From: an uncultured Candidatus Binatia bacterium
GTDB taxonomy: Bacteria; Desulfobacterota; Binatia; UBA9968; JAJDTQ01
Assembly: GCA_964291295.2 (NCBI GenBank)
Contig: OZ219754.1
Span: 2,304,001-2,368,000 of the forward strand
DNA: 64,000 bases
Reading direction: 5' to 3'
The notes beneath the pieces are model-generated. The model was given only the letters and a program-made list of their open reading frames with translations. It was not told the origin of the DNA and did no database searches. This document shows positions 9,665 to 12,889 of the stretch, piece after piece (positions within the stretch are counted from its first letter, which is position 1; every line of letters begins with the position of its first letter). A program made the position numbers and the translations under genes.

Positions 9665-9874
9665 TGGTACGCGAGCACCTGTGGAGTGTCAAGACGACAC
9701 CGCGGCACCGCCGGCCTTGCGGGGCTGTCCCACGCTGCGTGTTTACGTGGGGGAGGGGGGCAGGCACTGAAGTTCTTGCGCCGGGGCAGTCATGTTTCGG
9801 GAATGTGGGAACGCAGCTGCAAGGGGTCGAGCGCGATCCACGGTGAGGCTCCGGAAGGGTATTCGCTGTCGGAG

Positions 9875-10440
9875 GTGGAAGTGTGCTTTGTGTCGATGAG
9901 AAGAGCCAGATCCAGGCGCTCGACCGCACCCAGCCTGTCCTGCCGATGCTGCCGGGCATACCCGAGCGACGCACACACGACGACAAGCGCCACGGCACCC
10001 CCTCGCTGTTTGCCGCCCTTGAAGTCGCCACCGGCTTTGTCATCGCAAATGCTACCGCCGCCACCGGGCCAGGGAGTTCCGCGACTTCCTGAAGCAGGTC
10101 GACCGCCGCGTTCCCGCAGGCCTCGACATCCACATCGTCATGGACAACTACGCAACCCACAAAACCGCGGCGGTCTGGGCCTGGCTGGCGCGAGGGCCGC
10201 ACTGGCATGTCCACTTCACGCCGACACCCGGCTCCTGGATCAATCAGGCCGAGCGATGGTTCGCCGAACTGACGCGCAAGCAACTGCAGCGCGGGGTACA
10301 CCGTTCAACCCGGCAACTCGAAGCTGATATCCGCGCCTTCATCGACAAGCATAACCAGAACCAAAGCCCTTCAAATGGACCGAATATGCCGACGAAGTCC
10401 TCGCCGCGGTCAAGTGGTTCTGCCTCCGTGTCCAACAAAA
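9875..10440 (+). mobile_element. Degenerate IS630-family transposase remnant
   Basis: [31 protein letters not shown] and SWINQAERWF, split by frameshifts. Confidence 0.88.
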
Positions 10441-10521
10441 CCCATGCTACGAACTTTGCTTGGCGCAATGCAAGTCTGGTATGGCGAGAGTAACGGCGGC
10501 TTGCGGTGGACCCGAGCCTGC

Positions 10522-10992
10522 TTACAGACAAATCGCTTCCCAAAGAAACCACGCAAGCAAGCCGAGGAACAGGACGCCGAATGAAACCGGCAAGAGAGTT
10601 TCTACCGTGGTGAGCTTTGAATAGAGCTTTGGATCCTTGCCCTCTCCCACGAAATGCCACTCGCGTACGAAGGGTCGATAGGGAAGCTGCTCCTCAAGCT
10701 CGTGCAGCATTTTGAATTTGCCGCTGTTGAGCTGACGGTAGGATCGGATAACCACGCCCCAAGAGATCGCCACGATGCACCCCATAAGGGCAAAAAATGA
10801 CATCACGATAGTGATAGTAACGGCATCACCACCTACCCCGAATCGCGCTACCAAACCGGCAAGGACAAAAAGACCGGAAAGCAGGCTGACATAAAGTTGG
10901 TTCGCTCTTTCCCGCCTTTGACTTACCCTGTCGGCAAGCTCAGCGTGAAGCTTGTATAATTCGATGATTGTGGAATTTTCACCCGCCATCAC
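10522..10992 (-). CDS. Small multi-TM membrane protein (RipA/octameric-membrane or SLATT-like)
   Basis: ELYKLHAELADRVSQRRERAN, 2 TM helices, SYRQLNSGKF..LEEQLP..PF..EW and a C-terminal TM; low GC. Confidence 0.7.
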   Translation of the reverse strand: MMAGENSTIIELYKLHAELADRVSQRRERANQLYVSLLSGLFVLAGLVARFGVGGDAVTITIVMSFFALMGCIVAISWGVVIRSYRQLNSGKFKMLHELEEQLPYRPFVREWHFVGEGKDPKLYSKLTTVETLLPVSFGVLFLGLLAWFLWEAICL

Positions 10993-11015
10993 ACGTTTTC
11001 ACCCGCCATCACACG
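10976..11015. repeat. 20-bp perfect tandem duplication TTTTCACCCGCCATCACACG x2
   Basis: Read directly; spans the TIR stop and the effector start. Confidence 0.9.
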
Positions 11016-11419
11016 ACTTCTCCAATTGCCCTTACTATACTTTCGGTATTCCATTTTACGATCTTATTCGCATTAGTCTTTACAATTCTGGATGTTCTCT
11101 CGTTCCCCCAAGGTTCAATTGCGACGATTGGTTTTTGAATAGAGAATCCTTCCTTTGCCAAACGAATTTCTTCATTTATCCATTTACTATGGGTCGCATA
11201 TACTCCGGCTAAAAGCAATACGACACTACACGATGCCATCTGTCTCTGGATAGCGTTTCGCAATGCAGAAGGGGAATTCGCGTTATGGACTGGATCATTC
11301 CAGGGGACCGAATCATTCCTGAAGTCGAGATACGGTCTCGAATTCAATAACGCCAAGAGCCGGTCATGCGGGTCACTATAATTCCACGAATGGCCAATGA
11401 AGAGGTTCAATGTTCTCAC
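11009..11419 (-). CDS. Stand-alone TIR domain protein (MTH538/DUF1863, ThsB-like)
   Basis: LFIGHSW, DSVP..DP, CSVVLLLAG, SKWINEEI (candidate catalytic Glu), KPIVAI and IVKWN motifs; low GC. Confidence 0.85.
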   Translation of the reverse strand: MRTLNLFIGHSWNYSDPHDRLLALLNSRPYLDFRNDSVPWNDPVHNANSPSALRNAIQRQMASCSVVLLLAGVYATHSKWINEEIRLAKEGFSIQKPIVAIEPWGNERTSRIVKTNANKIVKWNTESIVRAIGEVV

Positions 11420-11611
11420 GGTGTCATCGCCATATAGGTGATCTCAAATTGAGACATCATCCAGTGGTTGTCAATGCTACCGGCGGTTTTATTCTGGAGC
11501 ATCGGTTCCACAGGTCCCCGTCGGGGCCGGGTAGACGAGGGTTCTGCGGCGCCCCCTCCTCCACAGATGCAGACTTGCCCGCATTAGAGCATCGGGCTCC
11601 CTACATGTCAA

Positions 11612-12330
11612 CCTGAATCCGGCGGTTGATGTTGGTCTGGATTCTCTGAAGCCCCTGTAGATCGGGCGGATGAGCGGATTGAAGGAGCCCGCGATAGTCA
11701 CCCATCACGCTGGTGGCAGACTCACCACTGCACTACACGAGCCCGCACGCGCCGTCGAAGCAGGACATTCCGGGCACGGTCCTTCTGGCGGTTCTGGCGG
11801 GGCAATCGCGGTATGCGCATATCACGGCACTGCGCCGCGACGGGGTCAACCCGCCGCTGTCGGGAATGGGCAAGGTTGTGAGAGAGAACTCGGTTCACCG
11901 CGGTCTGGAGCGGGTCGGTTCACAGGCCGGGTCGGCTTGGCTTCAGGGTCATCGCGGCGACACGGTTTGTCCCCTGCTGAGCGAGCCGTAGGTACTGGAT
12001 TGCGACACGACGATCAAGCCGCTCTACGGCCATCAGGAGAGGGCGTTGGCGAGCTACAACCCGAAGAAGCCGGGGCGTCCCTCGCATGCCTGCCATGCGT
12101 TTCTGATGGCGGGCACGCGGCTTGTTCCGGATGTCGAGGTAGCACCGGGCAACCATCACCGTTCGCGGCGCTGTCCTCGGGGGGGTTGCCCGACCGTCTC
12201 AGCCGGGATCACTGGCCGCGTCTGGTACGGGGCGACAAGGATTGGAGTAGCGAGGGCAACATTGCGTCGTGCGAGGCGGCGGATCTGGACTATCTGTTCA
12301 ACTCGCGCCTGACAAGGGGTGCGCGTCGGT
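11612..12330 (+). mobile_element. Degenerate IS1380-like transposase remnant
   Basis: GTVLLAVLAGQSRYAHITALRRD, LDCDTTIKPLYGHQE, YNPKKPGRPSH and LVRGD fragments with stops and frameshifts; end-like CCTGAATCCGGCGGTTG at ~11612. Confidence 0.75.
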
Positions 12331-12889
12331 GTTCCGCGCCTTGCTCGCCGCGGGCGGCCGTGCGCCTGCTTCGAGCATCGCTTCGACACATCGACCCCTG
12401 CACCGCAGTCCTCGCCGGTGACGGCTTTGCCGCGCACCGGCACCTGCAGTCGTGTTGGCGCTGCTGCAGCCGCGTCCGGCCGCACGCTCCGCAAGACTGC
12501 CCGCGCCTCCGTCCGCGCCGTTGATGTGCGTGACCGCACTGGCGCACCGCACGCCGCGGCAAAGGGTGCGCCATCCCCGTCTGCGTTTGCGGTAACGACG
12601 CAATCGCCCTGGCCGGCCGCCGCGACCATCCCGCGCAAACTTCGGTTGGCGATCCGGGAAGCGACTTTCGAGTCGCCCGTGCACAGCCGGCCCGGATCAT
12701 CTCCAACCCCACGGCGCGGGACAGTGCCGGCCGACCGCCGCGACCGGCTCCGGCGGCCGGCCCGTCTGAAGCCGGGCCACGGGTATCCGGACACGGGCAT
12801 CGGGATACGGGCCGGTTCGTGAAACCCGTCATTGACCTCGTTCTCCGGGCGTGTTAACCGGATTTCGCCATGTACGAGGCGGTGGGACG

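Follow-up and report, generated by a model that had tools for sequence, protein, structure and literature searches.

The described systems that stand closest to the locus discussed here are three types of Thoeris, in each of which a ThsB TIR protein is coupled to a different partner. Type IV, as outlined by Rousset et al. (bioRxiv 10.1101/2024.10.24.620036) and in the main text of Yirmiya et al. (bioRxiv 10.64898/2025.12.03.692087), is a validated system in which a short ThsB TIR is paired with a caspase-like protease, and its signal is N7-cADPR. In the account given by the second of these preprints, type V joins ThsB to ThsF (DUF2270/PF10028), a small protein with three transmembrane helices for which a ring with basic pockets at the protomer interfaces has been modelled, and signals through 3'cADPR; type VII, which is also validated, joins ThsB to the SLATT effector ThsH and uses canonical cADPR. 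The same 2025 preprint lists 29 putative classes of Thoeris effector, transmembrane proteins being one of the kinds included, and cautions that the TIR of unverified types might itself be an effector that depletes NAD+. Of the 30 operons cloned in that work, 15 lacked verified defence. Its main text names neither PF24838 nor '3TM', and, judging by the abundance of the TIR and PF24838 pair that concerns us, it is likely that this pair has already been catalogued as a predicted class.

Our example of the pair lies in a stretch of 64,000 nucleotides from an uncultured Candidatus Binatia bacterium, the whole of which we call the window. It is a small, horizontally acquired unit of two genes on the minus strand. 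The first is a thsB-like gene (11009..11419) with a GTG start, encoding a stand-alone TIR of 136 aa with a catalytic Glu at E84. The second (10522..10992, for which the ATG at 10989 is a likelier start than the end of the ORF at 10992) encodes a three-helix protein of 156 aa that belongs to PF24838, named by Pfam the octameric membrane protein family (8xMP), and that is predicted to be an oligomeric membrane effector. Both genes sit in an islet, from about 10400 to 11600, in which the composition profile gives a GC content of 0.45-0.55 vs 0.62-0.73 on both flanks, in agreement with an earlier, sequence-only reading of this DNA that had described an AT-richer island holding two co-oriented genes. 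That reading had also placed insertion sequence relics at both borders. One of these stands: a broken IS630-family transposase relic on the plus strand (9883..10493) that consists of two fragments. The one at 9883-10092 matches NCBIfam transpos_IS630 at E 2.4e-9 and the one at 10140-10493 at E 7.8e-17, over positions 147-201 and 229-299 of a model of length 299, and there is a further match to Pfam DDE_3 at E 1.5e-6. The other (11670..12524, plus strand) is a possible degraded IS1380-family relic, with transpos_IS1380 matches in two frames at E 0.0016 and 0.014, far under the cut-off, and no match in Pfam.

The junction between the two genes is marked by a 20-nt tandem duplication (10975..11014, minus strand), the two copies of which are 19/20 identical and cover the TIR stop together with the start of 8xMP. 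Between 11009 and 10989 this gives rise to a mini-ORF of six codons that overlaps both genes, its start codon with the stop of the TIR gene and its own stop with the ATG of 8xMP; in relatives, including the nearest one (locus L001), the two genes overlap by 1-4 nt and the 20-nt duplication is absent. A promoter and terminator scan found neither a sigma-70-like promoter nor a terminator beyond chance on the strand that carries the cassette. No defence genes adjoin the cassette in the window, and SIR2, SLOG and Macro domains, the absence of which had been remarked on before, were not found in it by a Pfam scan. At another locus of the same genome, a SLOG protein adjoins another TIR that is split in two ORFs.

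Judged by sequence, then, the cassette is nearest to type IV by the clade of its TIR and to types V and VII by the architecture of its predicted effector. It shares with type IV the TIR subfamily and a two-gene, co-oriented and tightly coupled layout, but the type IV effector is a soluble protease of ~320 aa, whereas that of the cassette is a 156-aa membrane protein. With type V it has in common a small effector with three membrane helices, in a two-gene operon with a short TIR. The likeness to type VII is that of a small membrane effector adjoining a short TIR; however, SLATT proteins have two transmembrane helices according to their Pfam family description, and 8xMP has three.

The TIR is ThsB-type by Pfam, by PADLOC and by fold, and we predict that it is a signal-producing enzyme. 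It matches ThsB_TIR (PF08937) at E 1.3e-12 and 48.4 bits against a cut-off of 21.2, and a check with PADLOC, which the earlier reading had proposed, returned ThsB1 models with a best E of 3.5e-9. Its AlphaFold2 (AF2) model (pLDDT 84.9) has EcThsB (8wcf) as its best Foldseek match, at E 1.4e-4 and TMq 0.68, followed by other flavodoxin-like and TIR-like folds. The intact glutamate of the WINEEI motif that had been recognised from the letters of the gene is E84, and it is kept in 21/21 close relatives of the TIR and in 13/13 very divergent TIRs linked to 8xMP proteins; among these divergent TIRs, which are 14-52% identical to that of the window, the only invariant columns are F7 and E84. Length is very uniform throughout the 474 matches that make up the TIR relatives. 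The window TIR deviates at three nearly invariant positions (S9G, F31L and Y36D, from an alignment read by eye), and its terminal branch on the TIR tree is 0.58 vs a median of 0.18.

The second protein is a clear member of its family, matching PF24838 at E 1.1e-30 and 106.7 bits (cut-off 30) over profile positions 1-135 of 136, and the AF2 model of the monomer (pLDDT 83.2) gives the predicted membrane protein three long helices, at residues 2-51, 57-101 and 129-155. PF24838 is a large family: at E <= 0.001 it comprises 3088 representative clusters, of which 1871 also pass E <= 1e-10, and almost all are 140-200 aa long. The 1025 matches collected as 8xMP relatives are very uniform in length. 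Across 13 divergent members (27-41% identity) R27, N31, W78, K92, E111, E131, P135 and F138 are invariant, and K14, R26, G71, S84, N89, V95, E100 and L103 nearly so. The conserved basic and polar motifs lie immediately before helix 1 and immediately after helix 2. From hydrophobicity and charge, the N-terminus and the 50-residue stretch past helix 2 are probably cytoplasmic, so that the conserved basic and polar residues would flank the inner face of the membrane; in the ring models of ThsF and ThsH presented by Yirmiya et al., phosphorylated ligands are bound by surfaces of this type. The comparison with L001, the nearest relative at 82% identity, gives a dN/dS of 0.26, which shows that 8xMP is under purifying selection.

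Family scans of 8xMP found no recognisable ligand-binding domain, and there was no meaningful PADLOC or NCBIfam match. Against the sequences of solved structures, searched with the single protein and with a profile, nothing fell under E 0.19; Foldseek gave no match to the model at E <= 0.001, and the best Z in a wide VIA-align search was 10.3, to generic helical bundles and lower than the chance level of ~13 for helical models. These searches leave 8xMP with no assignable fold. The predicted complex of TIR and 8xMP received a score of 0.00 and a mark of 0.32, values that speak neither for nor against an interaction. None of 12 longer proteins containing 8xMP, inspected in a fusion (Rosetta-stone) search, contains a TIR; an 859-aa protein in which 8xMP is joined to AAA_21 is probably a fusion made by gene calling. 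Two candidate relationships were tried and rejected. No match to PF10028 was found in 22/22 8xMP members at E <= 10, and hhalign against three DUF2270 proteins returned a probability of 1.6%, so that homology with DUF2270/ThsF is undetectable and the resemblance of the motifs after helix 2, which had caught the eye, is unsupported. SLATT/DUF4231 is likewise absent from the 25 families listed for the 22 members at E <= 10. The description of the protein as 'RipA/SLATT-like' in the sequence-only reading thus loses its second half; the first half has gained from a neighbouring Atlas cluster that carries the automatic name 'RipA family octameric membrane protein', RipA being presumably the Francisella membrane protein of that name. 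A literature search on 8xMP and PF24838 found no relevant paper, and in the literature on mycobacterial RipA, pneumococcal RipA/RipB and Francisella RipA we found no statement of 8xMP membership.

How firmly the two genes belong together can be asked from either side. Starting from 8xMP, we collected 80 loci by close 8xMP matches in species-representative genomes, covering, as judged from the titles of the records, Alpha- and Gammaproteobacteria, Acidobacteriota, Latescibacterota, Chloroflexota, Rhodothermales, Spirochaetia, Cyanobacteria and Nitrospirales. The TIR-subfamily profile matches a TIR or its remnant in 64 of the 80. A full-length TIR lies directly upstream of 8xMP in 45 (gap -10 to +26 nt) and at a distance of 0.4-1.9 kb upstream in four more, and in 15 loci the TIR is partial or frameshifted; the other 16 count as lacking it, among them L019, which keeps a remnant of 34 aa. 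The conservation of the pair, set as a test by the earlier reading, is thus well borne out. Clustering 2909 neighbour ORFs from the 80 loci revealed no recurrent third gene, which argues that the cassette is a two-gene unit rather than the stump of a larger operon. The only neighbour clusters present in more than 14 loci are antisense shadows of TIR and 8xMP, and those next in frequency are DNA methylases, Eco57I-like enzymes, ResIII, Schlafen/AlbA_2 and AAA_21 ATPases. Neighbours of restriction-modification (RM) or Abi type (N6_N4 methylase, Eco57I-like, ResIII, AAA_21, AIPR, GmrSD and Schlafen AlbA_2) recur in at least 42 of the 80 loci, as a raw count. Of the 80 close loci, 31 keep an intact 8xMP with a degraded TIR or none at all, and the TIR gene of L001 is a pseudogene that has an in-frame stop, a replaced E84 and a deleted C-terminal third, so 8xMP may be able to act independently of the TIR.

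Among close relatives of the host, 8xMP is patchy, with a match at E <= 0.001 in 8 of 24 genomes of the same genus. Nine loci of relatives (eight from the genus and one from the same order) include four in which the order is reversed, with divergent members of 8xMP and then ThsB_TIR lying adjacent. Plasmids provide 33 records with an 8xMP homologue, at 27-40% identity, and 8 of the 12 records inspected have an annotated TIR gene directly upstream. These come from the cultured bacteria Synechococcus elongatus IITB6, Polaromonas sp. H8N, Paenarthrobacter sp. YJN-5, Novosphingobium sp. ES2-1, Haematospirillum jordaniae and Clostridium perfringens, and from the haloarchaea Haladaptatus caseinilyticus and Halorubrum lacusprofundi. 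One plasmid 8xMP homologue directly follows a gene for an NB-ARC protein. Across the phylum, an even draw of 401 genomes contained 18 with a PF24838 match over the cut-off, and an adjacent TIR was present in only 3 of 17 such loci, the locus of the window being excluded; the other, assorted contexts included the interval between mnmE and gidB, UvrD/PD-(D/E)XK, NTP_transf_2 with HEPN, and an integrase. The wider PF24838 family is mostly without a TIR link.

It is here that we have to consider whether this genome carries the cassette as a passenger that is decaying or silent, or whether 8xMP has a housekeeping role in the membrane to which the link with a TIR is secondary. The copy in the window could indeed be decaying, since it stands alone between IS relics with no promoter match, with a duplication at its junction, a long TIR branch and three unusual residues in the TIR, and the many PF24838 genes in non-defence contexts such as that of mnmE and gidB would suit a housekeeping role. 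However, both ORFs are intact and every residue that is invariant across the families has been kept, the dN/dS of 8xMP is low, and the duplication preserves the coupling of stop and start, and we consider both forms of this explanation unlikely.

The strongest evidence for the pair, in our opinion, comes from the reciprocal test, in which the TIR subfamily was the starting point. We took the best 80 of 575 confirmed metagenome stretches that carry the subfamily, and 50 of the 80 have 8xMP. It lies directly downstream of the TIR in 33 of these; of the 17 that have it at another place in the locus, 14 show it directly upstream on the same strand. A further 28 loci leave room to judge, and there the gene adjacent to the TIR is, by Pfam, Peptidase_C14 (caspase) in 21, SLATT/DUF4231 in two and HEPN_Apea in one. 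Profiles built from those matches find caspase-like proteins in 27 of the 80 TIR loci, with TIRs 53-64% identical to that of the window, and SLATT-like proteins in three. Taken together, 8xMP, caspase-like and SLATT partners account for 78 of the 80, and in the remaining two the contig ends less than 300 nt from the TIR.

These results also bear on direct contact between the two proteins, an idea raised in the first reading of the sequence, and on a version of it in which they would work in the manner of a toxin and its antitoxin, the TIR holding a constitutively toxic 8xMP pore shut (or opening it) with no diffusible messenger. The tight translational coupling of the genes, with overlaps of 1-4 nt, would fit this, as would the plasmid copies that lie near partition and toxin-antitoxin genes. 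A toxin in need of its antidote is nonetheless hard to reconcile with an 8xMP that stays intact where the TIR has been lost or broken, as in the 31 loci counted above and in L001. The catalytic Glu is invariant even among TIRs of 14-52% identity, which points to action as an enzyme, and TIRs whose partners swap freely among unrelated effector folds are not what such a fit between two proteins would lead one to expect. We regard direct contact as very improbable, and prefer a reading in which the TIR would make a signal and 8xMP would respond to it.

Further evidence on the role of 8xMP comes from a tree of 130 full-length TIRs, namely the window TIR, 49 from the 80 genome loci and one from each of the 80 metagenome loci; from this set, loci with a TIR covering <90% of the profile were left out. 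Partners are clustered on this tree and are also interleaved: the 8xMP label changes 11 times on the best tree, against a mean of 27.0 when labels are shuffled, and at least three of these changes are required by branches with strong support. (Three of the loci that the tree labels 'none' or 'HEPN_Apea' were later found to have caspase-like ORFs.) The window TIR falls among 26 rows that form a group with weak support; 17 of the 26 are partnered with 8xMP and seven with caspase, and the rows nearest to the window TIR are caspase-partnered (path 0.91-0.94) and then 8xMP-partnered (1.02-1.04). In addition, some operons hold more than one kind of partner. L054 reads TIR-SLATT-TIR-8xMP, so that SLATT (match at E 5.5e-17) and 8xMP each follow a TIR, a further likeness to type VII; the Clostridium perfringens plasmid reads Caspase-TIR-8xMP-TIR, and L156 and L201 each have 8xMP and a caspase-like gene in one locus. 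The TIR thus clusters with TIRs of validated types, which is the mark by which Yirmiya et al. recognise a Thoeris system. Because the 8xMP pairings are interleaved on the tree with the layouts of types IV and VII, 8xMP occupies the effector slot of a Thoeris system, where it is equivalent to the caspase-like and SLATT effectors; the logic is that used by the same authors for new Thoeris types. The proposal of a 'non-canonical effector' made from the letters of the locus overstated the novelty, given that proteins with transmembrane helices are already among the putative Thoeris effectors of that preprint. Its broader conclusion, a minimal Thoeris-like system, is supported as far as sequence comparison can take it. 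To what has been described the present analysis adds the reciprocal result from the TIR side (78 of 80), the finding that caspase-partnered and 8xMP-partnered TIRs are interleaved, the operons with mixed partners, the archaeal plasmids and a candidate messenger.

The same observations have to be set against a reversal of the two roles, in which the TIR would be the killing component, an NADase that depletes NAD+, and 8xMP a membrane sensor or anchor that activates it, for example on envelope damage or on the entry of phage DNA. The possibility is one that Yirmiya et al. state for unverified types, and it draws some strength from the TIR glutamate, which NADase activity would need equally, and from an 8xMP with no known ligand-binding domain. 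Yet the partners of this TIR clade include caspase-like and SLATT proteins, whose role in validated systems is that of the effector, and 8xMP occurs in operons with several TIRs beside a second effector and also after an NB-ARC protein, itself of a sensor type. Moreover, orphan 8xMP genes are common, yet every informative TIR of the subfamily has a partner. Such a reversal strikes us as quite unlikely, and we keep to the TIR as the source of the signal and to 8xMP as the effector.

With that assignment of roles, the cassette is probably a two-gene Thoeris-type system of abortive infection, composed of a TIR that makes a signal and an effector in the membrane. Put differently, 8xMP appears to have taken the place of the usual killing enzyme in what is most likely a variant of an anti-phage alarm system that is already known. 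The ThsB-like TIR would be both sensor and signal generator, and on phage infection would use its catalytic Glu to turn NAD+ into a second messenger derived from ADP-ribose. The effector would be a three-helix protein of the inner membrane, assembled as a ring-like homo-oligomer, and the messenger would be read by its invariant cytoplasmic juxtamembrane residues, that is, by the RR..AN motif before helix 1 and by S, N and K after helix 2. Once gated, 8xMP would breach or depolarise the membrane, phage replication would be halted and the cell would be sacrificed. The domain identities, the conserved pairing, the slot that 8xMP shares with the caspase-like and SLATT effectors and the purifying selection on 8xMP come from the sequence comparisons; in this scheme we infer signal production, ligand binding by 8xMP, its oligomeric state, the membrane damage and the protection from phage.

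As for the messenger, N7-cADPR, the signal of type IV, is a possible and still tentative candidate, suggested by the fact that a caspase-like protein is the commonest alternative partner in this TIR clade and occasionally shares a locus with 8xMP. A bolder version of the idea, which we think rather doubtful, is that 8xMP represents a new kind of messenger receptor, one with no soluble sensor domain and with a pocket formed by juxtamembrane helices between the protomers of the ring, which would read N7-cADPR and would serve in Bacteria and Archaea as a plug-in effector for other sensors as well, such as NB-ARC proteins or whatever drives the orphan copies.

If the proposed system is confirmed, the cassette would be a small mobile immune module, one of several TIR loci in the genome of this bacterium, and TIR with 8xMP would constitute a further widespread Thoeris type, reaching across many bacterial phyla and into the haloarchaea. 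Its scale can be gauged from the thousands of representative 8xMP clusters (3088) and from the more than 575 metagenome stretches that carry the TIR subfamily. An effector of about 150 residues with no recognisable sensor domain would be a compact model in which to study how membrane proteins read nucleotide signals, and the repeated swapping of caspase-like proteins and 8xMP within one TIR clade makes N7-cADPR, and also cADPR, worth considering as an activator of 8xMP.

In the protein collection, the membrane-protein gene of our cassette, 8xMP (PF24838; 10522-10992 on the minus strand), is represented only by an 87-aa call (P0003, 100% identity, 56% coverage), and among the matches listed there is no 100% match to its partner, the ThsB-type TIR gene (11009-11419, minus strand). 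It is probable that both genes are under-called in the source annotation. Where the two meet, at the TIR stop and the 8xMP start, lies a 20-nt tandem duplication (10975-11014), which gives rise to a six-codon mini-ORF bridging the two genes and is absent from the nearest relative (L001).

Operons of this TIR-8xMP type do receive insertions, both of small toxin-antitoxin (TA) modules and of IS elements. At three of the loci fetched via close 8xMP relatives (L037, L022 and L043), a DUF2281 antitoxin-like gene sits between 8xMP and the upstream TIR, and L037 also carries in this interval a DDE transposase (PF01609) and an additional gene without a Pfam match, which we read as a broken PIN-like gene. 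Within the window, the stretch 9722-9885 (about 165 bp), immediately outside the IS630 relic, has 12 further copies elsewhere in this genome, which share 73-93% identity with it. It belongs to the short dispersed repeats of MITE- or REP-like kind.

The same genome holds a second TIR module, different from the cassette, at about 3.199 Mb on contig 1 (L094), in which a ThsB_TIR comes after a SLOG cluster2 protein (PF18163, 1.9e-64); this TIR is divided between two ORFs, probably by a frameshift. Two further ThsB_TIR genes (L091 and L093) lie in what look like defence-island contexts; one encodes a 289-aa protein with a NOV_C-domain protein on one side and a DUF1156 protein on the other, and the second gene encodes a 125-aa fragment adjoining an N6_N4 methylase.

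As for who carries the cassette, many of the 80 loci (L001-L080) come, going by record titles, from MAGs of what we take to be sponge-associated lineages, such as Candidatus Poriferihabitaceae, Latescibacterota and the Synechococcus SB06xx bins, and it seems to have spread across phyla inside one community type. Finally, on the Rhizobium leguminosarum plasmid pRL22b6 (L139), an NB-ARC domain protein ends just one base before the start of an 8xMP homologue, an arrangement suggesting that STAND/NLR-type sensors, too, can employ 8xMP.
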